64,000 nucleotides of DNA from Candidatus Magasanikiibacteriota bacterium (GCA_041674805.1 JBAYVA010000001.1:125136-189135); one strand, 5' to 3'. Shown: positions 2,559-60,519, counted from the stretch's first letter. A program made the numbers and translations. The notes: generated by a model from the sequence alone, not told the origin.

Positions 2559-3167
2559 ATGGCTGGAGATTCACTAGACAAATTGATGTATTCATTTGTC
2601 ATGGAGGACGTTTTAAAAGGTTTGTTTATAAAAGTACCTCCTGGACATGTAGCTTGTGTTTATGATCTTGGTAGAGGAGTATTGAAAAAAGTTTTGACAC
2701 CAGGTCTTCATTTCAAAATTCCATTTTGGCAAAAAGCAAGATTATTTAATACTCAAACACTTGAGTATGCTATTTCTCGTGATTTTAATCAATTGAATTC
2801 TAGAGCCATGGGTGATGTGCCGATTGGAGCTGTGACTAAAAGTAACAAAAAAATTGCTATTGAAGGTACAGTGTTACTTCGTTTAGATATTCACCAAATT
2901 CCAAATATTTGGCAGACTATTGGTGAAGATTTTGTTGAAAAAATTATCCGTCCAACTATGCGTAGTCGTATGCGTATGGTTATCAGTCGTTTTGATTCTG
3001 AAGAAATCATCGGAGCTAAGCGTGATGCTGTAGAGACTGAACTAAAAAATGAATTAGAAAGAATATTTTATTCTCGTGGTATCTATGTAGAAAATGTTTT
3101 GCTAAGTGAAATTTCTAGTATTGCTGAGATTAGAAATGCTGGTAAGACTGTTGCAGAAGGAGAATAA
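2559..3167 (+). CDS. SPFH/band-7 (prohibitin/HflC-like) domain protein
   Basis: PGLHFKIPFWQKARLFNTQT and a following alpha/beta core typical of the SPFH domain. Confidence 0.6.
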   Translation: MAGDSLDKLMYSFVMEDVLKGLFIKVPPGHVACVYDLGRGVLKKVLTPGLHFKIPFWQKARLFNTQTLEYAISRDFNQLNSRAMGDVPIGAVTKSNKKIAIEGTVLLRLDIHQIPNIWQTIGEDFVEKIIRPTMRSRMRMVISRFDSEEIIGAKRDAVETELKNELERIFYSRGIYVENVLLSEISSIAEIRNAGKTVAEGE

Positions 3168-3198
3168 ACTTCATTAAAACACTAGAACATAAAAACAT

Positions 3199-3234
3199 TA
3201 AAACAACCTCAAAAAATGAGGTTGTTTTTTTATT
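3199..3234 (+). terminator. rho-independent terminator
   Basis: AACAACCTC-aaaaaat-GAGGTTGTT followed by a T-run. Confidence 0.6.
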
Positions 3235-3335
3235 TTGTTGGATAACACAAATAAATTATGTGTATTTTACCAACCCCCGCCGATTTGTCGGACGGTTAGG
3301 CATCCGTAAATCCGTATTATCCGTATGTTGATAAG

Positions 3336-3405
3336 TTATCACTTGACACCATAGAGTGATAATAGTATAATATCACTGTAGATATAAGAGTGCTAATATT
3401 ATAAT
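3336..3405 (+). promoter_or_regulatory. hrcA promoter (TTGACA 3343-3348, 17-nt spacer, TATAAT 3366-3371) overlapped by two tandem CIRCE-like operators (3336-3362 and 3370-3396)
   Basis: TTATCACTT-N9-GAGTGATAA and ATATCACTG-N9-GAGTGCTAA versus the CIRCE consensus TTAGCACTC-N9-GAGTGCTAA. A second TATAAT lies at 3400-3405, 3 nt before the hrcA ATG. Confidence 0.6.
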
Positions 3406-3407
3406 CT

Positions 3408-4088
3408 ATGTTAGATGAAAGAAAAGCCAAAATTTTGGCTCTAATAATCGAAAAATATACGAAATCAGCTGAACCTATTGGATCCAGTTTTTTGGTTGAT
3501 GAATGTGATTTGGAACTTAGTGGTGCCACTCTTAGAAATGAAATGCGTGACTTGGAAGAATTGGGTTATTTGACTCATCCTCATACTTCATCTGGTCGTA
3601 TTCCGACTGAAATTGGTTACAAATACTATGTGGAAAATATCATGAAGGTAAAGACTATTGCCAAAAAAGTTGCCGAAGATTTCGATAGTGTGTCAGCTGA
3701 AAAAATAAATGATGAACTAAAAACTATTGCCAAAAATATTTCTGAAAAAACTGGCAACTCTGTGATTATTGCTTTTGGTCCTGGTTCACTTTATTACACT
3801 GGTATCAAAAATCTTTTTTCACAGCCTGAGTTTCATGATTATGCTTACATGGTTAGTGTTTCAACAATTTTTGATCAATGTGAAGATATGATTGGTGAGA
3901 TGTACAAAGCGATTGAAAGTGCTGAACCAAAAATTTTGATTGGTGCAGAAAATCCTTTTGGCAGTATGTGTGGACTAGTCGGAGCTAAACTAAAAAACAA
4001 CATTTTGTTTATGGTTTTAGGTCCTGTCCGAATGGATTATTCTACCAATTATACTTTGTTGGATTATTTACTAAAAAAATTTAATTAA
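3408..4088 (+). CDS. hrcA: heat-inducible transcription repressor HrcA (short, 226 aa)
   Basis: N-terminal winged helix: ERKAKILALIIEKYTKSAEPIGSSFL...SGATLRNEMRDLEELGYLTHPHTSSGRIPTEIGYKYYV. CIRCE sites lie upstream. Confidence 0.75.
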   Translation: MLDERKAKILALIIEKYTKSAEPIGSSFLVDECDLELSGATLRNEMRDLEELGYLTHPHTSSGRIPTEIGYKYYVENIMKVKTIAKKVAEDFDSVSAEKINDELKTIAKNISEKTGNSVIIAFGPGSLYYTGIKNLFSQPEFHDYAYMVSVSTIFDQCEDMIGEMYKAIESAEPKILIGAENPFGSMCGLVGAKLKNNILFMVLGPVRMDYSTNYTLLDYLLKKFN

Positions 4089-4096
4089 AAATATTT

Positions 4097-5017
4097 ATGT
4101 CTGAGGAAAATATGCAAGTTATCCCAAGTGTTGGAATGTATATAGAAAACAAAAAAGGTGAATTATTACTTGTAAAATCACACAAATGGGATGATAAATA
4201 TGCTGTACCAGGTGGAAAAATAAAATATGGTGAAACTGCGGTGCAAGCCGTTGAGCGAGAACTATATGAAGAAGTTGGACTGAAAGCAAAAAGTGTAGAG
4301 TTCGTAGATAATATAGACATGATAAAAGATCCAGAATTTATTTATAAACCAGAAGCACATTATGTTTCTCGAAGATTTCAAGTTATAGTTTCTAATACTG
4401 ATGTTGTCTTAAACAATGAAGCTGAAAGTTTTGAATGGGTTGCGCCAGAAGAAATTTTGAAAAGAGATGATGTAGTAACTATTGTCAAAGATTATGTAAA
4501 ACAACACATGCTTTCCAAAGAAAATAAGAAAACAAATAAAAAAGTATTAGAATTAGAAGAAAAAATAGAAGAATACAAATCAGGTTGGCAAAGAGCCCAA
4601 GCTGATTACAAAAATTTGCAAACTGAAATAGAAAATAAAAGAAGTGAATGGGTGAAGATGAGTGAGTTGCAAGTGTTGGAAGATTTTATTCCTGTGTATG
4701 ACAATTTCAAAAAAGCTTTTTCACACCATCCAGAGCTTGATAGCGAAAATGAAAAAGACAAAAAAGTAAAAAATTGGGTAGACGGAATTGGTTATATCAT
4801 GAAACAATTTAGTGATGTATTAAAAAGATTTGAAATAGAAGAAATAAAAACAGTAGGGGAGATGTTCAATCCAGAATTTCATGAAGCAGTCGGTGAAGAA
4901 GATTCAGAAGAAATAGAAGGTAAAATTTTGAGAGAAATAGATGTTGGTTATACTATGAAAGGAAAAGTGATAAAAGTCGCGAAAGTAATAATTTCCAAAA
5001 ATTCCAATAACAAATAA
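4097..5017 (+). CDS. grpE: NUDIX hydrolase domain fused to GrpE nucleotide-exchange factor
   Basis: Residues 1-140 carry a Nudix box (GGKIKYGETAVQAVERELYEEVGL). Residues 150-306 are GrpE (coiled coil LELEEKIEEYKSGWQRAQADYKNLQ, then GEMFNPEFHEAVG...KGKVIKVAKV). Single continuous ORF. Confidence 0.7.
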   Translation: MSEENMQVIPSVGMYIENKKGELLLVKSHKWDDKYAVPGGKIKYGETAVQAVERELYEEVGLKAKSVEFVDNIDMIKDPEFIYKPEAHYVSRRFQVIVSNTDVVLNNEAESFEWVAPEEILKRDDVVTIVKDYVKQHMLSKENKKTNKKVLELEEKIEEYKSGWQRAQADYKNLQTEIENKRSEWVKMSELQVLEDFIPVYDNFKKAFSHHPELDSENEKDKKVKNWVDGIGYIMKQFSDVLKRFEIEEIKTVGEMFNPEFHEAVGEEDSEEIEGKILREIDVGYTMKGKVIKVAKVIISKNSNNK

Positions 5018-5086
5018 ACAAATTCCAAACAATACACAAATAACAATTTGGAATTTGTAATTTATTAATTTGTAATTTTAAAGCAT

Positions 5087-5518
5087 ATGTTACCAAGACT
5101 ATGGGATCCATTCGATGATATGGATAATATGGTAAGAAATTTTCCTGCTCTTACCAACAACAATGATTTCAATCGTAAAGGCTTCGTGCCAGCCGTCGAC
5201 GTCTATGAGACAAAAGACGCTGTCGTAGTCGAGACCTTACTTCCTGGTGTCAATCCAGAGCAAGTAGAAGTCAGTGTAGAAAAAGGAGTTTTGACTATTC
5301 AAGGTGAAAGTCAAAGAGAACATGAAATTGATGAAAAAAATTATTATCGCAAAGAAGTGCGTGGTGGATCATTTTTCCGCCAAGTATCTTTGCCAGTTTC
5401 GGTCAAAGAAAATGAAGTAAGTGCTGAATTTGAAGATGGCATACTCAAAATTACTTGTCCAAAAGCTGAGGAAAAGAAAATGAATAAGGTGGATGTGAAG
5501 GTGATTAAAAAACAATAA
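5087..5518 (+). CDS. Hsp20/alpha-crystallin small heat-shock protein
   Basis: ACD motifs: PAVDVYETKDAVVVETLLPGVNPEQVEVSVEKGVLTIQGE...AEFEDGILKITCPK. Confidence 0.85.
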   Translation: MLPRLWDPFDDMDNMVRNFPALTNNNDFNRKGFVPAVDVYETKDAVVVETLLPGVNPEQVEVSVEKGVLTIQGESQREHEIDEKNYYRKEVRGGSFFRQVSLPVSVKENEVSAEFEDGILKITCPKAEEKKMNKVDVKVIKKQ

Positions 5519-5522
5519 TTCT

Positions 5523-5948
5523 ATGATAAATAGATTTGATCCAATATGGGAAGGTCATCAAAAAGATACTAATACTATAAATAAGTATTTACTTATTACA
5601 AGTAGATTATATACTATTGCCATTGTTGTTACTTCATTCTTTGTTAGAATTTTTCTTACTAATTTCAAATCAAGTGAGATAATGTCTGGTATTTTATTAG
5701 TTTCTTTCATGATTACTTCTGCGCTCCTTGTATATAATTTTTCACTTTATAGAGAATTAGCAAGTGTTTTAGTTATTGAAAAGTTAAGAAAAATAATGTT
5801 TTTCATTTGGTTGATTATTTTTTTTCTTTTTAACATATTCCAAATTATTACTTTGTTTGTGAATTATGGATGGTGGATGGTAGTGTTAAATATCATATGG
5901 GGTATAGTTGGTGATTTATTAATAAATAAAGTTATAAAAAAGAATTAG
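5523..5948 (+). CDS. hypothetical membrane protein (4 TM)
   Basis: Hydrophobic segments; starts 5 nt after the hsp20 stop. Confidence 0.4.
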   Translation: MINRFDPIWEGHQKDTNTINKYLLITSRLYTIAIVVTSFFVRIFLTNFKSSEIMSGILLVSFMITSALLVYNFSLYRELASVLVIEKLRKIMFFIWLIIFFLFNIFQIITLFVNYGWWMVVLNIIWGIVGDLLINKVIKKN

Positions 5949-5958
5949 TATTTATTAA

Positions 5959-6004
5959 CTGGCAGTGGTGAACTGAACATTCTAAACTGCCAAGACTTTT
6001 TTCT
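5959..6004 (+). terminator. putative terminator hairpin
   Basis: Imperfect CTGGCAG...CTGCCAAG stem followed by a T-run. Confidence 0.35.
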
Positions 6005-6083
6005 ACATAATAAATATCTTATAATAGTTTGATATGTGGTACGCGTTGTGTGATATGTGAATTAACTAATTAATTTAATAAAT

Positions 6084-6893
6084 ATGGAAAGACGAAATCC
6101 AGAGCATTCATTTTCTACAGGTGCAAAAAAAGTAGAAGAAAAAGAGAAAAAAAAGAGTTTACGAGAACGTCTCATTAATAAATGGACTTTGCTTTTTACG
6201 GCACTAACTGTATTTGCAGGTCATGAAATTTCTTCTGCCGAAAAAAACAAATATAATGATGATTTTGCTGAAAGATTACCTCAAGATCCTGAGTCTTTAG
6301 CAGAAATTGATAAAGCTCTTGATATTGTAGAAGAAGCTATACAAGAAAGAACACAAAGACAAAAAAATAAAGATGTTGAAGAAGAACAACTAGAAAAGCT
6401 TGCGCGTGGTATCCAACGTGAACATGGTTGGAAAGGAGACCAAGAAAAAGCTTTAGTTGATTTAACTGATATTCCTAAAAAGGAAGAATTACCATCGAAT
6501 CAAATGTTCAAAGAAGATTATCAAGCCATTTTTGATGCTCTTCCTAATAAAAATTTTAATCTTGCACCTATAGAGCTTGGATATTTGAATTATCTTATTA
6601 CCAACTCTCAGGATGATTTTGAAGCTGAACTAGATTTTGAGCATGAAGTTGTAAAACCAGAAGAAGATGACAAGGATACTTCTGAATATGTTGTAAGTAA
6701 TTACAAATTAACTGTTGGATTAGAAGGAAAAACACAAGAATTTGTTGCAGGTACATTACAGGAGGTTGCAAAATTAGTTTCTTATACACATGATTTACAT
6801 AGTTTATGGAAATTTTATGAAAGTGGTGTATTAACTGAAGAACAATATCAAAATGATAAAAAGGAATTACAAACTAAACATGGTTTTAATTAA
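6084..6893 (+). CDS. hypothetical protein, acidic, single N-terminal TM; possible SHOCT-like C-terminus
   Basis: ORF only. The C-terminus LWKFYESGVLTEEQYQNDKKELQ resembles the short C-terminal (SHOCT) motif. Confidence 0.4.
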   Translation: MERRNPEHSFSTGAKKVEEKEKKKSLRERLINKWTLLFTALTVFAGHEISSAEKNKYNDDFAERLPQDPESLAEIDKALDIVEEAIQERTQRQKNKDVEEEQLEKLARGIQREHGWKGDQEKALVDLTDIPKKEELPSNQMFKEDYQAIFDALPNKNFNLAPIELGYLNYLITNSQDDFEAELDFEHEVVKPEEDDKDTSEYVVSNYKLTVGLEGKTQEFVAGTLQEVAKLVSYTHDLHSLWKFYESGVLTEEQYQNDKKELQTKHGFN

Positions 6894-6936
6894 ATTTTAT
6901 AAATAAAAAATAAACTAATTAAAATAATTTATATTT

Positions 6937-6977
6937 AAGAAAGATCCCTCGTCGTGCTTTCGCCGACTTCGGGATGA
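6937..6977 (+). promoter_or_regulatory. palindromic GC-rich leader motif, copy A (upstream of dnaK)
   Basis: AAGAAAGATCCCTCGTCG...CGACTTCGGGATGA ends 12 nt before the dnaK ATG. Same motif at 13956, 15877 and 51961. Confidence 0.45.
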
Positions 6978-6988
6978 AGTAAAAAAAT

Positions 6989-8926
6989 ATGTCAAAAATA
7001 TTAGGAATCGATCTAGGAACAACTAACTCATGTATGGCTATCATCGAAGGTGGTCAGCCAAAAGTGTTAGAAAACAAAGAAGGAAATCGTACTACTCCAT
7101 CTGTCGTGGCTATTTCCAAAACAGGTGAACGTCTTGTTGGGCAATTGGCTAAGCGTCAAGCTGTAACCAATCCTGGCAATACTTTGAATTCAATCAAGCG
7201 TCTTATTGGTCGCAGATTTGAAGACAAAGAAGTAAAAGATATTATAGAACATTCACCATATACTATTATCAAAGATGGCGAAAAATTGAAAATAAAAATG
7301 GGGGACAAAGAATATACACCTCCAGAAATTTCAGCCATGATTTTGCAAAAATTAAAAGCTGATGCCGAAGAAAAATTGGGAGAAAAAATTACAGAAGCTG
7401 TTATTACAGTTCCTGCATATTTCGATGATTCACAAAGACAGGCTACTATTGCTGCTGGTGAAATCGCAGGATTGAAAGTTGCTCGTATTATCAATGAACC
7501 AACTGCCGCTGCTTTTGCTTATGGCTTCGACAAAAAAGGTGACCAAAAAATAATGGTTTACGATTTGGGTGGTGGTACTTTCGATGTTTCAGTTTTGGAT
7601 ATCTCTCATGATGGCGAACAATCTACAGTAGAAGTTTTATCAACCAATGGTGATACACATCTTGGTGGTGACGACTTTGACAAAAAAGTTATTGAATGGA
7701 TTCTAGAAGAATTCAAAAAAACAGAAGGTATTGATTTGGCAAAAGATCCACTTTCACTGCAACGTGTCAAAGATGCTGCTGAAAAAGTAAAAATTGAACT
7801 TTCAAGTACTGTCGACGCTGAAATCAACGAACCATTTATTACTTCAGGTGCTGAAGGTCCAAAACATTTGAACTTGAAACTTAGTCGTGCTAAGTTGGAA
7901 GAGTTGGTAAATGATTTGGTAGAAAAAACTATGGGTCCAGTTAGAAAAGCTTTGGAAGATGCCAAAATGCAAAAAACTGAAATCAATGAAATCGTGCTAG
8001 TCGGTGGTATGACTCGTATGCCTCTTGTACAACAAAGTGTAGAAAAGTTTTTTGGTAAAAAACCAAACATTAGTGTCAATCCAGATGAAGTCGTCGCTGT
8101 TGGTGCTGCTATCCAAGCTGGACAATTGCAAGGTGACTTGGGCAAAGAAATTTTGCTTCTTGATGTCACTCCACTTTCATTAGGACTCGAAACTCTAGGT
8201 GGTGTATCTACCAAACTTATTGATAGAAATACAACTATTCCAACTAGTAAAACTCAAGTTTTCTCTACTGCTGCTGACAATCAGCCAAGTGTAGAAATTC
8301 ATGTTTTGCAAGGTGAACGTCAAATGGCAGTTGATAACAAAGCTCTTGGTAGATTTATGCTTGATGGTATTCCACCAGCTCCACGTGGCGTGCCACAAAT
8401 CGAAGTAAAATTTGATATTGATGCTAACGGTGTATTACAAGTATCTGCTAAAGACAAAGGAACTGGTAAAGAACAATCAATTCGTATCGAAGCTTCTTCT
8501 GGTTTATCTGATGAAGAAATAGAAAAAATGAAAAAAGATGCTGAAGCTCACGCTGACGAAGACAAGAAAAAACGTGAAATGATTGATATCAAAAATACAG
8601 CTGACACTATGATTTATACTACCGAAAAAATGATGAAAGATGTAGAAGAAAAGAAAATCGAAGTGACAGATGAAGAAAAACAAAAAGTAAATGATGCTTT
8701 GACAAAAATGAAAGAAGTCAAAGAAAAAGATGATATTGAAGAAATCAAAAAAGTTTCTGAAGAATTATCTACAGCTGCACAAGCTATTGGTATGAAGATG
8801 TATCAACAAGAACAAGCTCAACAGCAAGCAGGTAACAGTGAACAAAAAACAGGTGAACAACCAGCTGATGAAAAAAAGAATGAAGGTGAGTCTGTAGAGG
8901 GGGAAGTGGTTGATGGGGACAAATAG
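6989..8926 (+). CDS. dnaK: molecular chaperone DnaK (Hsp70)
   Basis: 645 aa. [26 protein letters not shown] and a full substrate-binding domain. Confidence 0.97.
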
Positions 8927-12799: not shown

Positions 12800-13385
12800 A
12801 TTTTTCAATATCATCTTTGTAAATATGTGCAGAAGTAATATTGGCGATTATTTTCATTTTTTGCAGACCTAGTTTTTCTTTTATTGGTTCAAATAATTTT
12901 GTTATTTCAATATAATCTGCATAAGATTTTTTGCCAATATCTTGGCTTTTGAAAGTAGCTGTGATTATAAGTATTTCATCTCTTACAATATATTGTAACA
13001 TCGCCAAACATGGCACGTGTGTTACATCTTCTTTTGGGATTAAAGTAGAAAAAATAGCATCCATAGAATTTTCTCTTTTTTCTAAATTAGCAAGAGAATT
13101 TTCTATTTGATTCAAACCATGATAATCAAAAAATCTTTGTCTATAAGTATAACCGAAGCCGACATTTTCGTCTGTTTCAAAATTTTTCTTCATGTATTCT
13201 AAAATATCTTTGTCGCCGTGCTTTTCAACTATTTCGTCATTAATATTTGGTTCATTGATTATAAGTTGTAAATTCAAAACTTCAAGCAACTCTGTCTCAC
13301 GATAATTTATTTCTTTTCCATTTTTCAAAATATATTTTACTGCTTCAAGCCAGACCTCACCAATTGTATTTTTTTCTATGATCAT
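12783..13385 (-). CDS. thyA: thymidylate synthase family protein (short, archaeal-type)
   Basis: FGYTYRQRF (compare YGxQWR), PCLAMLQYIVRD...ATFKSQDIG (compare PCHxxFQFYV...CQLYQRSxD), SAHIY (compare THLY). Confidence 0.55.
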   Translation of the reverse strand: MIIEKNTIGEVWLEAVKYILKNGKEINYRETELLEVLNLQLIINEPNINDEIVEKHGDKDILEYMKKNFETDENVGFGYTYRQRFFDYHGLNQIENSLANLEKRENSMDAIFSTLIPKEDVTHVPCLAMLQYIVRDEILIITATFKSQDIGKKSYADYIEITKLFEPIKEKLGLQKMKIIANITSAHIYKDDIEKLKKLR

Positions 13386-39400: not shown

Positions 39401-39428
39401 AAACATCCTAAAAAAGGATGTTTTTTTG
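39401..39428 (+). terminator. terminator after leuS
   Basis: AAACATCCT-aaaaa-AGGATGTTTTTTT. Confidence 0.7.
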
Positions 39429-39498
39429 CACAGTTTTTTTTACAAATCTTAAATTTTTTTTTAATGTCTTTTTGTCTCTTCTTTATAGGGGGTGGAAA

Positions 39499-40311
39499 AT
39501 GTTGGACCTGAAAAGGTATACGACAATCCGCCTTCTGGGAGAAGGTGGATTTGCTCGTGTTCACCTCGTCGTGGACGAGGTGACAGGTGAGGAGTACGCT
39601 CTCAAAGAGCTTATTCCTCAAGAAGATGAAGTGAGTCATCTGCAAAATCTGGAAAAGTTACTCATGGAGTTTACTCTCCTGGTAGCTTTGCCACAACACT
39701 CGAACGTGGTTCGGGTGTTTGAAACCGATTTCAAAAATGGATATTTGATGGAGGCGTTTGGCGCTTCTCTCACTAAAAATATCCATTTGGTTGGAAAATT
39801 CCGTCATCTGATTCAGATTATGATGGGAATTTTTCAAGGTCTGAATCATTTTCACCAGAATGGGAAGCTTCATCTCGACGTGAAGCCTTCTAACGTCTTG
39901 ATCTCCCGAGATCAATACGGAAACATTCAGGTGAAACTCACCGATCCTCTTGTCCTTGGGAAAGACAAGAGTCTGTTCTTTGGGACTTCAGAATATGCTG
40001 CGCCAGAGTTCATGGCGTATGTAGGTGGAGATAGTCCCAAGGCAGATATGTTCGCCGCTGGTATCATTTTTTACCAACTTTTGTTTGGTAGTTTCAGATC
40101 GGACCCTTGGGGAGTTCGTCATGATAGTGATGCCAGTAAATTCTATGATTTTAGGTTTAATCGTAAACCTAGATCTTTGAAAATAAAGTGGCCAGAAGAA
40201 ATCCGCCAGCTGATTGCGGAACTTTTGTCCCACCGTCCAAAAAAACGGCCAGACGCCAGCTCGTGCATCGAGCGGCTGAAGCCTTTTTTGGAAGAAGAAG
40301 ACAAGGAGTGA
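39499..40311 (+). CDS. Hanks-type Ser/Thr protein kinase-like protein (atypical catalytic motifs) on a GC-rich islet
   Basis: G-loop LGEGGFARV, YALKEL, catalytic loop HLDVKPSNVL (non-RD), LTDP in place of DFG, AAPE. GC is about 48% against about 30% in the flanks. Start trimmed to the ATG at 39499 (MLDLKRYTT). Confidence 0.65.
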   Translation: MLDLKRYTTIRLLGEGGFARVHLVVDEVTGEEYALKELIPQEDEVSHLQNLEKLLMEFTLLVALPQHSNVVRVFETDFKNGYLMEAFGASLTKNIHLVGKFRHLIQIMMGIFQGLNHFHQNGKLHLDVKPSNVLISRDQYGNIQVKLTDPLVLGKDKSLFFGTSEYAAPEFMAYVGGDSPKADMFAAGIIFYQLLFGSFRSDPWGVRHDSDASKFYDFRFNRKPRSLKIKWPEEIRQLIAELLSHRPKKRPDASSCIERLKPFLEEEDKE

Positions 40312-44700: not shown

Positions 44701-44737
44701 AAAAAGACTCACTGGAAAATAGTGAGTCTTTTTTTAT
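44701..44737. terminator. bidirectional terminator
   Basis: AAAAAGACTCACT-ggaaaat-AGTGAGTCTTTTTTT. Confidence 0.7.
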
Positions 44738-45366
44738 TATAATTTTTTTATTTCACTTGCTGTCAAAATTTCTAATTCTTGCAATCTTTGCAACAGGCTT
44801 TCCATATTGGTATAGAGAATTGGTTCAAAACCTATTTCTTTGGCATTTTCCAAAACTCTGGGAGTATCGTCTATAAAAATCATTTCGGAAATATTTACTT
44901 CAAGTTTTTCTGCTAGCATTAGGAATGCTGCTGGGTCTGCTTTCATTACACCTACTTCGGCAGAAAATAAAGTGATATCAAACAAATCATCAACGCCAAG
45001 TTGTCTGGCTTCTTGTGCACCAGTTGCAGTGTGATTACTAAACAAACCAACTTTGTAACCTTTATTTTTTAATAATTTTATTAGAGGAAGTATCTCTTCA
45101 TTATATTTTCCTTTTGGAAAATTGTGAAGTAATTTCAAGAATTCATCTACTTTTGATTCTTTTCCTAAATCTGTAAATACTATAGTCCAAAATTCTTTTT
45201 CGTCTATATTGGTAGTATTTATAAGATGATTGTATTTGTAATAAGAATTACTAAATTCTTCATTGGAAATATTTAGAAGTTCTGAAATCATGGTGTGATA
45301 TCTAGAAGTAAAAAAGACTACTCCTACCCAATCAAAACCAATTGCTTTTATCTTTATCATAAACAT
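44737..45366 (-). CDS. HAD-superfamily hydrolase
   Basis: Motif I at the N-terminus (IKAIGFDWVGVVF, aspartate nucleophile); motif III FIDDTPRVLENAKEIG. Confidence 0.65.
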   Translation of the reverse strand: MFMIKIKAIGFDWVGVVFFTSRYHTMISELLNISNEEFSNSYYKYNHLINTTNIDEKEFWTIVFTDLGKESKVDEFLKLLHNFPKGKYNEEILPLIKLLKNKGYKVGLFSNHTATGAQEARQLGVDDLFDITLFSAEVGVMKADPAAFLMLAEKLEVNISEMIFIDDTPRVLENAKEIGFEPILYTNMESLLQRLQELEILTASEIKKL

Positions 45367-45800
45367 GTTGTTCTAGTGTGATCTACTTTTCCTCTATTTA
45401 CTATTCCTATTGCTTGATCAAATTTTTCATATCTAAGTCTTATTTTTTCCAGTTCGTCATCAGAAATATTAGTTTCATTTTTAATTGTTTGTATTTTGGT
45501 ATACATAGTTGATAGATCTGCTTTGGCAGGACTTCTTTTATTACGTTGTGGTGAGTTTTCTGGTCCTAATTCTTCAATTGCCATTAATTTTTGAATATTA
45601 TGATTTTGTTCAAATTCATCAAACATCCTTTCTAGTTCAGCAATATCTTCTCTACATTCTCTTTTTGTTTCAGGTATTACAGGTCCTTTATCTTCATGAA
45701 TTTCAGCAAGTTCTGCATATGCTGCATACATATCAGCTTCAGCAGCTTCCTTTTGTGAATTTATTTCTTCGGGTGTTGGCCCTGGTTTATCTATTCCCAT
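45357..45800 (-). CDS. hypothetical acidic protein
   Basis: ORF; its stop overlaps the HAD start by 10 nt (ATGTTTATGA). Confidence 0.4.
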   Translation of the reverse strand: MGIDKPGPTPEEINSQKEAAEADMYAAYAELAEIHEDKGPVIPETKRECREDIAELERMFDEFEQNHNIQKLMAIEELGPENSPQRNKRSPAKADLSTMYTKIQTIKNETNISDDELEKIRLRYEKFDQAIGIVNRGKVDHTRTTCL

Positions 45801-45844
45801 ATTGTATTTTGGTTAATAATAATTTAGTTAATATAATATATTTT

Positions 45845-46093
45845 TTAATCAGTTTGCTCTTCCCTTGTGCTATCTAAATAATCAACTAAAAAATCAGAAA
45901 AAATCTTTTCTAAATCTTCTTGATTTAATTCAATTATACTTTTATTTTCTTTTACTAAATATTTTTCTAAATATGGTTCTACATCAATTTCTTCAAATTC
46001 TTCGCCAGCTTGTTCTATAGTTTGTAATATAAAAGAGATTGCTTTTTTTTTAGCTTCAATTTCTAATTCTCGCATTTGTTCTGGTGGAGTCAT
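45845..46093 (-). CDS. hypothetical acidic small protein
   Basis: ORF 16 nt downstream of the helicase stop. Confidence 0.4.
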   Translation of the reverse strand: MTPPEQMRELEIEAKKKAISFILQTIEQAGEEFEEIDVEPYLEKYLVKENKSIIELNQEDLEKIFSDFLVDYLDSTREEQTD

Positions 46094-46109
46094 AATTTTA
46101 ATTTAAAAT

Positions 46110-47411
46110 TTATTTATTTAAATCCATAAACTTCTTTACTCTTTCATCAATGAAAATGTACTTAGCAAGCAGGGGAGTCGTGAGAGACATACCTTCTAGT
46201 GTGCGACAGCGACTAAGGGCGACATAAGCTTGTCCGTGAGCAAAAGTACCTGAACCAAAATCTATATGTACTTTGTCAAAAGTTTTTCCTTGTGCTTTGT
46301 GAATAGTTACTGCCCAAGCAAGTTTTAGTGGCAGTTGGGTGAAACTACCAACAACTTCAGATTCTATTTTTTTGTTTTCTCTGCTGTAGATAAAACGGAT
46401 AGCTTCTCTTGTCTGGGATGTAATATCTTCGTAAGTATTATCATCAAAAAGTACTCTTACACTATCTTTTTCTGTTTTTATTATTTTTACAATATCACCA
46501 TTTACCCAACGACCAAGAGGATCATTGCTAAGTATCATGACTTGAGAACCTTCTTTCAAAATTAAGTTTAGTTCGGTAGGTAAATCTCTTTCTTTGAATT
46601 GTCCTTCAATTGTCCCATTGTACATTTTTGCTTTGGCTGGCAATTTGTCCATTTCTTTTTTGTTTATAGTATTAGCGACATAATTGGTTGGGACAATAGA
46701 TAGCACAAATTCATCTTCAGGTTTTTTGTATTGTGGTATAAATCTGCTATTTATTAATTCTATATCTTGTTGGTCAAAACTGCAAGTTCTAATTTTGTCT
46801 AGAGCCTTGATAAATTTATTTTGTTTTTTGCTGTCTTGTCTATATATTTGTGTTAATTCTACTTTGAAAAAATTGCCATCTGAAAAACATTTGGCATCAA
46901 AGAAATAAGGACTTTCATAATGTAACTTGAAAAAAATTTCTTCATCATCTACGACGATAGGTGGCAATTGGTACAAGTCACCAATAGCAAATATTTGCAC
47001 TCCGCCAAAAGGTTCATCTGGTCTGTTACCATTTAGACGCATAAATTTGTCTATGCAATCCAACAAGTCAGCACGAACCATAGAGATTTCATCGATGATA
47101 ATAATATCTATTTTTTTATAAATATTATTGTTGTCATCATACATTTTTTTTATGCTGTCTAATGTAGTTTGTGGGTGAAAGCGAAAAAAAGAGTGAATAG
47201 TTTGTCCTTGGACATTGAGAGCTGCTACGCCAGTGTATGCCAAAGTTACCACATTTTTTTTGGTGGTAGCGCGAAAGTATTTGAGGAAGTGGGATTTACC
47301 AGTGCCAGCTCGGCCTGTCATAAAGATATTTCTATCGCTATTTTCCAGCAAGTCTATTATAGCTTTTTTTTCTTTGTTTAGATCAAAGTCTGTTGGTGCT
47401 GTGACACTCAC
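46110..47411 (-). CDS. PIF1/RecD-like SF1 DNA helicase
   Basis: Walker A GRAGTGKSH; YTGVAALNV; IIIIDEISMV; GDLYQLPPI; C-terminal AVTIHKAQGKTFD. Confidence 0.7.
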   Translation of the reverse strand: MSVTAPTDFDLNKEKKAIIDLLENSDRNIFMTGRAGTGKSHFLKYFRATTKKNVVTLAYTGVAALNVQGQTIHSFFRFHPQTTLDSIKKMYDDNNNIYKKIDIIIIDEISMVRADLLDCIDKFMRLNGNRPDEPFGGVQIFAIGDLYQLPPIVVDDEEIFFKLHYESPYFFDAKCFSDGNFFKVELTQIYRQDSKKQNKFIKALDKIRTCSFDQQDIELINSRFIPQYKKPEDEFVLSIVPTNYVANTINKKEMDKLPAKAKMYNGTIEGQFKERDLPTELNLILKEGSQVMILSNDPLGRWVNGDIVKIIKTEKDSVRVLFDDNTYEDITSQTREAIRFIYSRENKKIESEVVGSFTQLPLKLAWAVTIHKAQGKTFDKVHIDFGSGTFAHGQAYVALSRCRTLEGMSLTTPLLAKYIFIDERVKKFMDLNK

Positions 47412-47550
47412 TTTTTTTTGGCTTTCTCTTTTTTTGCCAATACCTTTTTTGATAAAAAAAGTCTTGAAAGGAGTCGCTTCTTTTGGTTTTGTTTGTTTTG
47501 TTGTTCTTTTGATATGTTTTGGTTTAGATTTTAGGTTGCTTTATTATATC

Positions 47551-47580
47551 ATAAAACGTATCGGGAGGGGATACGTTTTG
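47551..47580 (-). terminator. terminator for the DGQHR gene (minus strand)
   Basis: ACGTATC-gggagggg-GATACGT with flanking A/T runs. Confidence 0.5.
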
Positions 47581-47594
47581 TGGAGTTATGAATT

Positions 47595-48902
47595 TTAATT
47601 GTTATTAATATTTTGTTTTTTAATATTTTCTAATTCATCATCATTTATTATAGTTGTACTATTATCAAATGTTAAAATGTGGTGATTTCTGTTATATTCA
47701 TCTGATTTTCCATGTTCTATATCCAATATAATTAAATTATTATGTTTTTTACCAATAACATCTTTTTTATAATCTATTATTTCTTTCATTTTTTTGTATA
47801 ATCTTGATTGTAATCCTTCTCCACCACTTCTACTGAAATCTCCTTCAATACCAAATAATTTTTTTGCTTCTGTTTTATTTATTAATGAAAATATTTTGTT
47901 AAAATATTCTTTTAAATATTGTATATTATTGTTATTAAGTTTTATCTCTTTTTCAAAATCATTAAATAATTTCAAAAAGGCTCCTACGCCAGTAGTTTTA
48001 AATAATATAGATTGCTCAAATATTGAGTAACTTCCATCTATTTTTGGTTTTGGATAATGTTCTGAAAATTTTTCTTTTATTATTTGGAAATAAATTGATA
48101 ATATATTATATATTATTATAGGATCTGTTTTTTTATTTTTATATTCATCATATAATATTGAAAAAGCTTTTTCTGGTTTAAATAATTCTTTTATCTTTTC
48201 TACTAAAAAAGCCTGAGAAATAGTGCCTGAGCCAGTTCCTAACATTTTTATTAGACCAAAAAAAGGGTCACTTTTTGAATAATTAAGCTTTTTAACTATA
48301 GAGTGAGAAAGAGTATATTCATTATATTCTCCTTCTTGAGAACCAAATAAATCATAATATAAAGATTTATTTACGGCTTTTTGTTCAAAGTTTACTGTAG
48401 CAAATATTTTTGATTGTTCCCAAATATCATAACCGACAAGCATTGTAATTGGCAATTCAATATCTAATTCATCAAAAGTTAACTTGTTTTCTTCATAAAA
48501 TTTTTTTATTCCTAACAATCTGTGTTGTCCGTCAATAATAAAAGCTTTGTATAGTTTTGTGTCAAATGTTAAATATTCTCCATCCCAAGTTATTTCACTT
48601 TCTGTGTTTTCATCCCTTTCATTAATGGATAATATTATAGCAGTTGGAAAAAGTACTATAGATTTTTTATCTTTTTTTATTATTCCTTCTTCATCTATTA
48701 AAGAATTTTTTATGTAGTTAGCTATTTTTTTTATTTTTTCTTGGTCACTTAGTCTTTGAAAAAATTTATTATCTGATCCATCATTTTCTATTTTCCTATA
48801 TGTAAATTCAGAAATTTTGTCTAATTCAGAAAAAGACATCTTTCCTACAAAAGAAGATTTTATTAGATCTTTATTTAATTGTGATAATTTTAGTTTCATC
48901 AT
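47595..48902 (-). CDS. DGQHR-domain protein (DndB-like, ParB/Srx-like superfamily)
   Basis: FPTAIILS, IIDGQHRLLGIKKF, VNFEQKAVNKSLYYDLFG; 435 aa. Confidence 0.65.
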   Translation of the reverse strand: MMKLKLSQLNKDLIKSSFVGKMSFSELDKISEFTYRKIENDGSDNKFFQRLSDQEKIKKIANYIKNSLIDEEGIIKKDKKSIVLFPTAIILSINERDENTESEITWDGEYLTFDTKLYKAFIIDGQHRLLGIKKFYEENKLTFDELDIELPITMLVGYDIWEQSKIFATVNFEQKAVNKSLYYDLFGSQEGEYNEYTLSHSIVKKLNYSKSDPFFGLIKMLGTGSGTISQAFLVEKIKELFKPEKAFSILYDEYKNKKTDPIIIYNILSIYFQIIKEKFSEHYPKPKIDGSYSIFEQSILFKTTGVGAFLKLFNDFEKEIKLNNNNIQYLKEYFNKIFSLINKTEAKKLFGIEGDFSRSGGEGLQSRLYKKMKEIIDYKKDVIGKKHNNLIILDIEHGKSDEYNRNHHILTFDNSTTIINDDELENIKKQNINNN

Positions 48903-48903
48903 A

Positions 48904-49557
48904 TTAAATATCTATTTCTTTTTGACTTGTTATTTCATTTTCATAGGAATCTTCCTCTTTTGTATTTTTTATAGTTGAGTTACTGGCTATTTCTTTTAGA
49001 ACATTATCTATATCTGTATTTGTTTCTTTTCTTAACTCTTTAAATTGTTCCGATATATCAGTACGTATTTGTTCCTTTATATTTATCATTTCTTCTTTTA
49101 CTTTTATTTCGGCTTCTTTTACTAAAAGTTCTTTTTGTTCCTTAAATGACGTATCTAATTCTTTCTTTTTTATTTCTAATTCTTCAGATAGTTCCTTTTT
49201 TTTATCTTTTAATCTTTTATCTTCCATTATTCCAAAAAATATTAAAATAGCTGAGATCAAAAAACCAAAACCAGTAATCCACCATTTTAATTGATTAATT
49301 GCTTTATCATAAGCTGCCTCTTTTTCATCGGCTACATTTTTTTTGAAATCTATAGAAGTTATCAAGTTTTCAATACTTTTGTATTCAATAGTTTTTGAAT
49401 CTAATTTTTGGTTTTGAAATTCTTGATCTAATATTATTTTATTTATAATTTTTTGGTCTACTGAATTAAAAGCAAACACTTGTTTTATAAAAAGAGTAGA
49501 AAATCCTGATATTATGAATATTATTAATATCATTATTTTTTGATTAAATTTGATCAC
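48904..49557 (-). CDS. membrane protein with C-terminal coiled coil, translationally coupled to the DGQHR gene
   Basis: Two TM segments, then a long KE-rich heptad region. Its stop lies 1 nt before the DGQHR ATG. Confidence 0.5.
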   Translation of the reverse strand: MIKFNQKIMILIIFIISGFSTLFIKQVFAFNSVDQKIINKIILDQEFQNQKLDSKTIEYKSIENLITSIDFKKNVADEKEAAYDKAINQLKWWITGFGFLISAILIFFGIMEDKRLKDKKKELSEELEIKKKELDTSFKEQKELLVKEAEIKVKEEMINIKEQIRTDISEQFKELRKETNTDIDNVLKEIASNSTIKNTKEEDSYENEITSQKEIDI

Positions 49558-49740
49558 AGTGTTTATTTTTTTAGTTTAAAATACATATTTATAATACCTC
49601 TCTACTCTAATTATCGCAAATATACAAAAAAGTAGCTTGTTTTAGCAAAAAAATAGCTATTTTTAAAAAAACTTAAAATAAAATTAAAAGTTATTCACAC
49701 CATAATAACAAAAACAGCTAAATTAGCTGTTTCTTCTTAG

Positions 49741-49811
49741 TTCGGGGATAGGGATTCGAACCCCAATAGTCAGGATCAAAACCTGAAGTCCTACCATTAG
49801 ACGATCCCCGA
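49741..49811 (-). tRNA. tRNA-Gln (anticodon TTG)
   Basis: Hand-folded cloverleaf: acceptor TCGGGGA/TCCCCGA, D-stem GTCT/GGAC, anticodon stem TCAGG/CCTGA with loop TTTTGAT, T-arm GGGG-TTCGAAT-CCC. Confidence 0.8.
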
Positions 49812-49883
49812 ATGTTTGAATTGTTACTTCACAGAAAACATAATATCACAATAAAGACTTGAAATCAAGTCTTTATGTGGACA

Positions 49884-50492
49884 TTATTTCATATCAAATA
49901 ATACTGGTATTTCTAGCGTTGCGTCGTACTCAGGCAATCCAGAAGGATTGTCTTTCTTGAGTATTAGATGTCCATTATTTTTGTAGGTCGGTGTGTCAAA
50001 AGTTAGTGTCGCTTCAAATGCTACAAACTCTTCTGTCATCCAATCACTTTTGGCTGTAGCAATACCACTTGCGATGATGATTCCATCCCAGTCAGTCAAG
50101 ACGATAGGGAAGCTTGCTTCAAAAAACCAAGTACCACGAGCTTGACCAGTGATAGTCAAAGGACTGGTAACAATTTGATTGGGACGAATATTTTCCAAAA
50201 TTATTTGATCTCTTTGATTTAGTTCGTTACCAATATCTTCAATAAAATTTTTGTTATCAGTTGTTTTACATTGTCTTGGATAACTTTCCATTATTGGGAA
50301 ACCTGCTTCAAGACATTCTGTAAAATTAGTAATAATTTTTTCTTCTACTTGTGGAGTCAAAGGTGTTTGTGAAGTAGAACTAGGGGAGACATTATTATTT
50401 ATTTGTTTATTTTGTCTAGAATAGTTCAAGATAAAAATGTTTGCTACAATCAAAGTTACAAATATGAGACTTATAATGATAATTTTTTTCAT
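49884..50492 (-). CDS. secreted Gmad2 immunoglobulin-like domain protein
   Basis: Signal/TM, then VTSPLTITGQARGTWFFEASFPIVLTDWDGIII...EEFVAFEATL...NPSGLPE, typical of PF10648. Confidence 0.55.
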   Translation of the reverse strand: MKKIIIISLIFVTLIVANIFILNYSRQNKQINNNVSPSSTSQTPLTPQVEEKIITNFTECLEAGFPIMESYPRQCKTTDNKNFIEDIGNELNQRDQIILENIRPNQIVTSPLTITGQARGTWFFEASFPIVLTDWDGIIIASGIATAKSDWMTEEFVAFEATLTFDTPTYKNNGHLILKKDNPSGLPEYDATLEIPVLFDMK

Positions 50493-60375: not shown

Positions 60376-60448
60376 ATTATGTATGATTAAGAGTTAGTAA
60401 ATTAGTTATTACTAAGTTAGAAGCTAAATTAAAGTTTTTTTTCTTTAG

Positions 60449-60519
60449 TTCGGGACTAGGGATTCGAACCCCAATAGACAGGACCAGAACCTGCCGTCCT
60501 ACCATTAGACGAGCCCCGA
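60449..60519 (-). tRNA. tRNA-Gln (anticodon CTG)
   Basis: Same scaffold as the 49741 tRNA with anticodon loop TTCTGGT; acceptor TCGGGGC/GTCCCGA. Confidence 0.8.

Follow-up and report, generated by a model that had tools for sequence, protein, structure and literature searches.

Here we focus on a pair of genes found beside a tRNA gene in a 64,000-nucleotide (nt) stretch of DNA from Candidatus Magasanikiibacteriota bacterium (GCA_041674805.1 JBAYVA010000001.1:125136-189135). This stretch, which we call the window, belongs to a 743,922-bp contig and is ordinary chromosomal DNA; the genome is of Patescibacteria type and low in GC (~32%), and IF-2, LeuS, UvrB, DnaK, LepA, RecJ, DnaX and RNase Y are all encoded in the window. 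On the minus strand, a tRNA-Gln(ttg) gene at 49740-49811 (ARAGORN; Rfam tRNA, 60.6 bits) is followed by two open reading frames (ORFs) of the six-frame ORF list, one at 48904-49557 encoding a predicted membrane protein of 217 amino acids (aa), hereafter the partner, and one at 47595-48902 encoding a 435-aa protein with a DGQHR domain. The junction between the two reads ...GAT ATT TAA T ATG ATG..., with a spacer of 1 nt, and the public gene call of the DGQHR protein begins at the second Met, giving 434 aa (P0001). Further along the same strand, at 46110-47411, lies the gene for a 433-aa PIF1-family SF1 helicase. An initial annotation of the window had described these ORFs and their motifs, the 1-nt junction, the tRNA-Gln and the helicase, and the six-frame ORF list and ARAGORN confirm the existence and position of every one of them.

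One question raised by this pair is what the DGQHR protein is. The motifs named as its signature by the initial annotation (IIDGQHRL, FPTAIILS and VNFEQK) are all found in the 435-aa translation, and the assignment passes profile searches with TIGR03187 DGQHR (E 2.8e-35, 122.4 bits against a cutoff of 58.85) and with Pfam DndB (PF14072; 45.8 bits against 29.1). In an alignment of 23 homologous sequences, D123, Q125, H126 and R127 of the signature are invariant, as are R49, F166 and N170, while G124 and Q48 are conserved in at least 90%. The alignment thus retains the QR pair (Q48/R49) and FxxxN (F166/N170), together with YYD, H199, SQA and KTTG, and the nucleoside triphosphate (NTP) pocket motif is intact. 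An AlphaFold2 (AF2) model with a mean predicted local distance difference test score (pLDDT) of 85.5 consists of an N-terminal alpha/beta domain with the ParB/Srx fold, a helical domain, and a small beta domain (residues ~385-428) that is exclusive to the Patescibacteria clade. As all the defining features were tested and found, the place of the 435-aa protein in the DGQHR domain family is secure. Foldseek against the PDB returned weak ParB matches only, a profile search of PDB sequences returned nothing meaningful, the C-terminal domain has no confident structural match, and Pfam detected no helix-turn-helix (HTH), ParBc or Spo0J family in the protein.

Family membership does not imply orthology to either of the well-known members. 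The score against the DndB equivalog TIGR04172 (dnd-associated DGQHR protein 1) is 75.6 bits where the cutoff is 450, and against the DpdB equivalog NF041060 it is 63.5 bits where the cutoff is 300; the PADLOC DpdB model (PDLC02811) likewise matches weakly at 62.7 bits. Both DpdB profiles are covered almost end to end (positions 34-321 of 352 for NF041060 and 39-322 of 370 for the PADLOC model), and the helical domain can therefore be considered DpdB-type, while the Pfam DndB match is limited to profile positions 14-213 of 338. Gene linkage agrees with the scores. A PADLOC scan of 57 window ORFs, with the best 25 families listed down to E 2.6e-15, contains no Dnd or Dpd component within the 64 kb besides the weak DpdB-like match of the DGQHR protein itself; a real DndA, DndC, DndD or DpdA would score far better than this limit. 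Since neither the equivalog scores nor the linkage expected of DndB or DpdB were found, the protein is not an orthologue of either one, and its description as an orphan DndB-like protein without nearby dnd or dpd genes holds within the window.

What the protein does can be approached through its characterized relatives. DpdB is a homodimeric, DNA-stimulated ATPase without nuclease activity (PMC10164549), DndB is a homodimeric, DNA-binding, ATP-modulated repressor that regulates its own expression (PMC4507180), and a DndB-like protein binds both ATP and GTP (bioRxiv 10.1101/2025.10.10.680097). Because these relatives behave in this way, the window's DGQHR protein is probably an NTP-gated DNA-binding dimer. 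The initial annotation had suggested a membrane-tethered, ParB-like nuclease or NTP-binding module. Of this, the ParB-like fold and the coupling to a membrane protein stand; a nuclease activity is not supported, because no HNH/DUF1524/DUF262 module, EHxxP nicking motif or HEPN signal was found in the protein by Pfam, alignment or structure comparison, and the closest characterized relatives are an ATPase lacking nuclease activity (DpdB) and an ATP-modulated repressor (DndB).

The hydropathy profile of the partner contains two hydrophobic segments, one at residues ~10-28 (an N-terminal anchor or signal) and one at ~92-111 (TM2, the second transmembrane (TM) segment), separated by a helical region of ~63 residues that holds the conserved VADEKEAAYDKAINQLK. 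Six of the 15 residues after TM2 are K or R, and these lead into a charged, probably coiled-coil region of 106 residues that ends in an acidic-aromatic C-terminal tail (DSYENE...). The two-TM, coiled-coil protein of the initial annotation is thus recognizable in both hydropathy and charge. As the six K/R residues directly follow TM2, the tail is predicted to be cytoplasmic and the ~63-residue helix would lie outside as an ectodomain; it is plausible that the acidic-aromatic tail serves as a docking peptide. The partner has no match in Pfam, NCBIfam or PADLOC, and Pfam searches with ten partner proteins gave sub-threshold coiled-coil noise only. A sequence search with the partner found only three homologues, which indicates that the family evolves fast, and further homologues were therefore gathered by gene position.

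Collected in this way, the partners provide evidence that the two genes belong together. A scan of the GTDB with one genome per species found 295 relatives of the DGQHR protein, and 27 loci of the closest clade were compared, namely five Patescibacteria contexts and the 22 best GTDB loci for which the sequence reached far enough. In every one of the 27, the DGQHR gene is abutted upstream by an ORF for a membrane protein of ~190-277 aa, across Patescibacteria, Flavobacteriia and Bacteroidia (Bacteroidota), Campylobacterales, a betaproteobacterium and a Methanoperedens archaeon. A directly upstream gene without a Pfam match accompanies DGQHR homologues of 65, 55, 53, 40, 32 and 26% identity. Among the 22 GTDB loci the ORF is on the same strand as the DGQHR gene and the hydrophobic segments occupy the same relative positions, with both passing threshold in 19 and only one in the other three. 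The partners can be aligned through TM2, which ends in G(F/L)(F/W)G(F/Y)(K/R), through the coiled-coil region and through the acidic-aromatic tail, which occurs as NPFDNE, as PTFD and, in the window's clade, as S-[YF]-E-[ND]. In 21 of 25 junctions the partner stop and the DGQHR start are no more than 9 nt apart or overlap. The tight coupling to a membrane protein proposed by the initial annotation survives the comparison of 27 loci. An all-against-all BLAST of the flanking ORFs found no third conserved gene in these loci, and the functional unit is therefore the pair. Among 1.84 billion representatives, a search at E<=1e-30 yields ~500 clusters of the family when grouped at 50% identity; a tblastn search of phage genomes gave no match.

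Outside the closest clade, the partner is replaced by unrelated membrane proteins. These have four TM segments in L013, L036, L038, L042 and L043 (numbers denote the loci compared) and three in L041 and on the Acinetobacter plasmid pTR3_1; L011 and L012 encode a protein with one TM segment and a coiled coil, and two plasmids, Lactococcus pVF21 and L. plantarum (Lactiplantibacillus) pCD033, encode soluble-domain proteins with two TM segments. Taken with the close clade, these loci show that the two genes, and no others, are maintained together as a unit in several phyla, that this unit moves between genomic contexts, and that its membrane component is swapped in distant clades and on plasmids. 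Two loci deserve separate mention. At L034 (25-4569; a Sulfuricurvum metagenome-assembled genome, MAG), 1 nt separates the partner gene from the one before it, which encodes a 1514-aa protein carrying a HerA/FtsK-type ATPase domain, and the arrangement may be a fused or extended variant of the system. At L042 (2610-12152; Aequorivita sinensis), a distant DGQHR gene with its four-TM upstream ORF is accompanied by PbeC and PbeA in a locus that is genuinely of the DndD/DndE kind. The superfamily therefore bridges to modification systems, and a membrane partner can accompany DGQHR proteins inside phosphorothioation-type systems.

How the pair came to its place in the window became evident from relatives sharing the surrounding genes. 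At L093, whose helicase is 75% identical to that of the window, a mere 99 nt follow the tRNA-Gln in the place taken by 2,124 nt of the window, and the two genes are missing. L093 is collinear with the window on both sides, upstream through Radical-SAM, cadherin-like, CopA, HMA/DsbD, CsoR and Gmad2 genes and downstream through the helicase, a 148-aa ORF, HAD, zf_Tbcl_2 and ABC-F. BLASTN aligns L093 7155-7781 with window 50328-49704 and L093 7881-9324 with window 47579-46112, which leaves an inserted segment at 47580-49703 (minus strand) that contains the partner and DGQHR genes with their upstream region and nothing else. The two genes have a GC content of 22.6-22.8% (22.7%), against a window mean of 32% (z = -2 relative to 58 window genes).

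The same tRNA stands at the equivalent place in L006, L093 and L094, and its 3' end forms the left boundary of the variable segment. Homology ends at window position 49704 in comparison with L093 and at 49738 in comparison with L094, so that against L094 the variable segment reaches the tRNA end at 49739. It then includes a terminator-like hairpin directly 3' of the tRNA (49710-49734, minus strand; an 11-bp stem and T-run in the terminator scan), and other hairpins occupy its position in L006 and L093. On the right, the junction is abrupt: a five-way alignment of relatives begins exactly at AAAACGTATCC (window 47579), the 5' arm of a second hairpin. This one (47551-47577, minus strand) has a 10-bp stem, AAAACGUAUC/GAUACGUUUU, starts 17 nt past the DGQHR stop and was not called by a consensus terminator scan. 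It had been described as the cassette's own terminator (47551-47580), a description that does not hold, since relatives without the cassette share it and it is native DNA from upstream of the helicase. The hairpin is part of a conserved non-coding element of 94 nt (47486-47579, minus strand), with a TATAAT and a CA-rich run, that marks the right boundary and lies outside the cassette. The element is identical in the window, L094 and L103, has two mismatches in L102 and is recognizable in the empty site of L093, and it is conserved though the adjoining helicase genes are only ~76% identical in DNA. It has no Rfam match, and Rfam found nothing besides the tRNA over window 47300-49950; it could be a leader or small RNA, or else a recombination target of the site.

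Other relatives carry different DNA between the same landmarks. In L094 (a Magasanikbacteria MAG, 3110-7830), as in L098-L101 and L103-L105, a 4.7-kb cargo of five genes lies between the same tRNA-Gln and hairpin, comprising a DUF3800 gene and four ORFs without a Pfam match (119, 266, 62 and 652 aa). The 652-aa protein was considered as a possible DGQHR relative and proved unrelated on testing; a 40-nt stretch by which BLASTN homology runs on into the 3' end of the DGQHR gene is AT-rich noise. L102 has yet another sequence at the tRNA-Gln/helicase site. Probing with the hairpin retrieved eight further relatives, and the pair is missing from all of them. Repeats of the tRNA 3' end are also present in two loci: the spacer of L093 contains an exact 18/18 repeat (7857-7874), and L006, a different genome with the tRNA-Gln directly before the pair, has a 17/18 repeat (13055-13072) 4 kb downstream. 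The latter bounds an islet of the pair and three small ORFs, one of them weakly HEPN_Cthe2314-like. The empty site, the other cargo, the repeats and the low GC combined show that the 3' end of this tRNA-Gln is a cargo hotspot at which the pair is one of several alternative inserts. The acquisition at a tRNA site that had been proposed from the window is therefore well founded in the syntenic relatives, and plasmids of Acinetobacter, Lactococcus and Lactiplantibacillus carry the pair as well.

The genes around the pair in other genomes give an indication of function. In L021 a Type III restriction-modification (R-M) operon contains the pair, with the Mod methylase on one side and the Res subunit on the other, beside a DUF3987/BT4734 mobile-element gene. 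In L003-L005 it begins 5 nt after an MmeI-type IIG enzyme, with DUF6119 upstream. The genes before it in L010 are Dcm, an unknown ORF and Vsr, and a Schlafen-like helicase and MazG are encoded close by. Plasmid pTR3_1 carries it after a BglII-type R-C-M unit and near RelE/ParE; on pCD033 it adjoins MazEF, and on pVF21 a holin-like toxin gene is found close to it. D12 adenine methylases, 37-52% identical to one another, occur near the pair at varying positions in L014, L023, L024, L033 and L038, in the last of which the methylase gene overlaps the partner gene. Another is found in L013 and a further one on the L095 plasmid, and these D12-associated loci may represent a three-gene variant with a link to methylation. 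When 129 neighboring ORFs from 24 loci of the two-TM clade were scanned with PADLOC, Type II and Type III methylase models were the commonest matches, and no Dnd or Dpd component was present among the families listed (the 25 commonest of 219).

From this context we infer that the pair would be a self-sufficient defense- or conflict-type module, and the role in defense or modification sensing suggested by the initial annotation now has the backing of gene neighborhoods elsewhere. On balance, we consider it probable, with considerable room for doubt, that 47580-49703 is a compact, horizontally acquired two-gene cassette, self-contained and mobile, that is probably of defense type and couples an NTP-gated DNA-binding protein to the membrane. 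In such a cassette, the partner would be a bitopic or hairpin membrane protein with its coiled coil and acidic tail facing the cytoplasm, and the DGQHR dimer, binding NTP and DNA as its relatives do, would be docked at the inner face of the membrane through that coiled coil and tail. From here, two versions may be envisaged. As a tether, the complex would meet DNA entering at the envelope and capture, mark or block it, or pass it on to co-resident restriction enzymes, and would thus form an accessory layer to R-M systems. As an effector, the membrane protein would be activated by DNA recognition through the DGQHR protein and bring about cell arrest, as in abortive infection. That unrelated membrane partners are freely exchanged is a typical sign of effector swapping. 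The length of the coiled coil and the conservation of the ectodomain helix and the tail agree with a tether or sensor. We would divide our expectation roughly evenly between a tether or exclusion role, a membrane effector and some other mode of action, with the effector slightly behind the other two.

Several observations weigh against a defense cassette of this kind. PADLOC 2.0 has no system model for the pair, with only a weak DpdB match for the DGQHR protein and none for the partner. A physical interaction of the two proteins is suggested only by translational coupling and the conserved tail, and the AF2 model of the partner alone, all-helical, has a pLDDT of 49.8, too low to use. Within the window, the islet lacks an integrase (none was found in L093 or L006 either) and has no att-like repeat of the tRNA 3' end with up to three mismatches. 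Finally, no recognizable defense neighbor is found in many loci, among them the window, L006, L008 and several Bacteroidota loci beside TonB-receptor genes, and the link of the pair with defense genes, an informal, background-uncorrected estimate, is suggestive only.

The two-gene, translationally coupled architecture would also fit a toxin-antitoxin (TA)-type addiction module, in which the small membrane protein acts as a toxin of the holin-like kind, with the DGQHR protein as its DNA-binding repressor or antidote, and the islet or plasmid is stabilized without any role in host defense. The pair does occur on small plasmids beside other TA systems, with the holin-like toxin gene of pVF21 close by, DndB is an autoregulating repressor (PMC4507180), and unrelated membrane proteins are exchanged at the partner position. 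Nevertheless, the partner is too long (190-277 aa) for a minimal pore-former and has a coiled coil, a tail suggestive of docking and a conserved helix in the ectodomain, an NTPase of 400 aa would make a large antitoxin, and the embedding in R-M operons fits immunity better. We therefore regard addiction as unlikely, though still the most credible of the alternatives, and it overlaps the effector version of the defense cassette, as TA-type and abortive-infection functions are not mutually exclusive.

A conventional but split modification system is less likely still. Here dndACDE, sspABCD or dpdA would be encoded elsewhere in the genome, and the protein, as an orthologue of DndB or DpdB, would regulate or assist them. 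Homology to both DndB and DpdB extends over most of the protein, some genomes have their dnd genes scattered (PMC3632139, PMC10853773), and the distant four-TM clade includes a true DndD-DndE-...-DGQHR locus, L042, where PbeC and PbeA are also present. This was outweighed by the equivalog scores far below cutoff (TIGR04172, 75.6 vs 450; NF041060, 63.5 vs 300) and by the finding that Dnd and Dpd components are missing both from the 64 kb and from the PADLOC families listed (the 25 commonest of 219) around the pair in the 24 loci. Moreover, the sole invariably linked gene encodes a membrane protein, which is not a feature of canonical DndB or DpdB, and the pair is found alone on plasmids of 8-22 kb.

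Of nearly the same low probability, and marginally the weaker, is a housekeeping tether between DNA and membrane that would resemble Noc or ParB with a membrane adaptor and serve chromosome organization, segregation or DNA uptake. The ParB fold agrees with this, as does the precedent of Noc, which couples NTP binding to membrane association (bioRxiv 10.1101/2025.10.10.680097), and in the window the pair lies among housekeeping genes. Such a function is difficult to reconcile with the absence of the pair from close syntenic relatives, its patchy spread (the ~500 clusters at 50% identity in 1.84 billion representatives), its atypical GC, its plasmid carriage and its association with R-M genes, and no HTH or parS-type centromere-binding domain was detected.

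The remaining alternative extends the unit downstream, where the initial annotation had seen a possible cooperation of the pair with the helicase and two small acidic proteins. The PIF1 identity of the helicase was correct (PF05970, E 1.9e-29), and the two small ORFs are indeed acidic: one of 82 aa at 45845-46093 (pI 4.20) and one of 147 aa at 45357-45800 (pI 4.86), both on the minus strand, the latter with a 10-nt overlap with the HAD hydrolase gene at 44737-45366. Neither has a match in Pfam, NCBIfam or PADLOC. The helicase has more than 8000 homologues at E<1e-30 across Patescibacteria, many of them 50-77% identical, and its GC content of 34.2% is native, against 22.6-22.8% for the pair. 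It is found next to the tRNA-Gln without the cassette in L093, L094 and L098-L105 and is absent from all 26 other loci of the close clade; it is a resident neighbor and not a part of the cassette. A single multi-gene system acquired at the tRNA is accordingly very improbable, even with all the genes on one strand, the helicase only 183 nt after the pair, and RecD/PIF1-like helicases known from defense systems (this one weakly matches PADLOC PDC-S68 and typeIV_RecD), because the helicase, the 147/148-aa ORF and HAD are syntenic in L093 without the pair and accompany different cargo in L094 and L098-L105, pair and helicase are set apart by a native, conserved leader that contains a hairpin, and the empty site and the census (0/26) refute it as a conserved unit.

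Some features of the window stand apart from the pair. The 82-aa ORF is absent from syntenic L093 (9320-10502, corresponding to window 45847-44680), a small lineage-specific indel. A second tRNA-Gln gene, with anticodon ctg, is located at 60448-60519 (minus strand), and its 3' end differs from that of tRNA-Gln(ttg) at 2 of 23 bases. A Ser/Thr protein kinase gene at 39418-40311 (plus strand) has a GC content of 43%, strikingly high here (z = +3.3 for GC at third codon positions), and was possibly acquired horizontally; it accounts for the PD-T4-6 matches in PADLOC. The matches of some window ORFs to mad2, mad3, mad6 and mad8 (E down to 3e-43), AriA and MkoA are most likely generic ones to housekeeping ATPases, chaperones and helicases.

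Returning to the proposed defense cassette, its wider meaning lies in the context it gives to the DGQHR family. These proteins have so far been understood only as accessories of modification systems, DndB in phosphorothioation and DpdB in 7-deazaguanine insertion. The clade of ~500 clusters travels without modification genes and always with a membrane protein, across phyla, in one archaeon and on plasmids, and repeatedly in or beside R-M operons. It is thus a concrete candidate for a new membrane-coupled defense module and a new functional context for the ParB-fold NTP switch. No description of a module of a DGQHR and a membrane protein was found in full-text searches of the literature, which took in papers that recently reappraised the Dnd and BREX systems and one surveying ParB-fold fusions. 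A broader proposal, which we put forward tentatively and consider somewhat short of an even chance, is that the pair belongs to an unnamed family of two-gene immunity modules in which a modification-free, DpdB/DndB-like ParB-fold NTPase and interchangeable membrane proteins link the recognition of foreign or unmodified DNA to the envelope. Such modules would intercept entering DNA or trigger a membrane effector, often as an add-on to R-M, and would be present even in tiny Patescibacteria genomes. Patescibacteria have few recognized defense systems, and the tRNA-Gln cargo hotspot is now documented in this group. As the empty-site comparison sets the borders of the cassette to within a few bases, the minimal cloning unit is known, and the pair offers a candidate system that has sharp borders, is widely distributed and can be approached by experiment.

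Comparison with known systems places the pair among several of them without equating it with any. As in other tRNA-linked genomic islets, insertion is exactly at the tRNA 3' end, with an empty site, alternative cargo and, in L093 and L006, tRNA 3'-end repeats; unlike them, the window's islet has neither integrase nor surviving repeat, and with 2.1 kb and two genes it is unusually small. DndB shares the DGQHR signature, the QR pair and FxxxN, and the Pfam DndB threshold is passed; it differs in that no adjacent dndCDE is found in the window or the 27 related loci, and in the TIGR04172 score (75.6 vs 450). DpdB is set apart by the lack of DpdA (TGT), DpdC or DpdD-K near the pair, whose obligate partner is a membrane protein and not a transglycosylase, by the extra C-terminal beta domain in the DGQHR proteins of the Patescibacteria clade, and by a score of 63.5 bits against 300. 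Enzymes of the DUF262 type (SspE, GmrSD/BrxU, DndI) have their own C-terminal HNH/DUF1524 or EHxxP nuclease module together with DGQQR, and no membrane partner. The window's DGQHR protein has no DUF262/DUF1524 match and no EHxxP, and because the nuclease module is absent it is not a restriction enzyme of this type.

Two further comparisons concern architecture. Kiwa is a two-gene module consisting of the membrane protein KwaA and the DNA-binding effector KwaB. There is no sequence relationship between Kiwa and the pair, and PADLOC finds no Kiwa model for either protein; the likeness is one of design logic only, in that a small multi-TM protein is coupled to a cytosolic DNA-binding protein. Exchange of TM effectors occurs in CBASS, Pycsar and retron systems, and the swapping of unrelated TM proteins at the partner position resembles it. 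We would place the pair with the ParB-fold, NTP-dependent conflict proteins.

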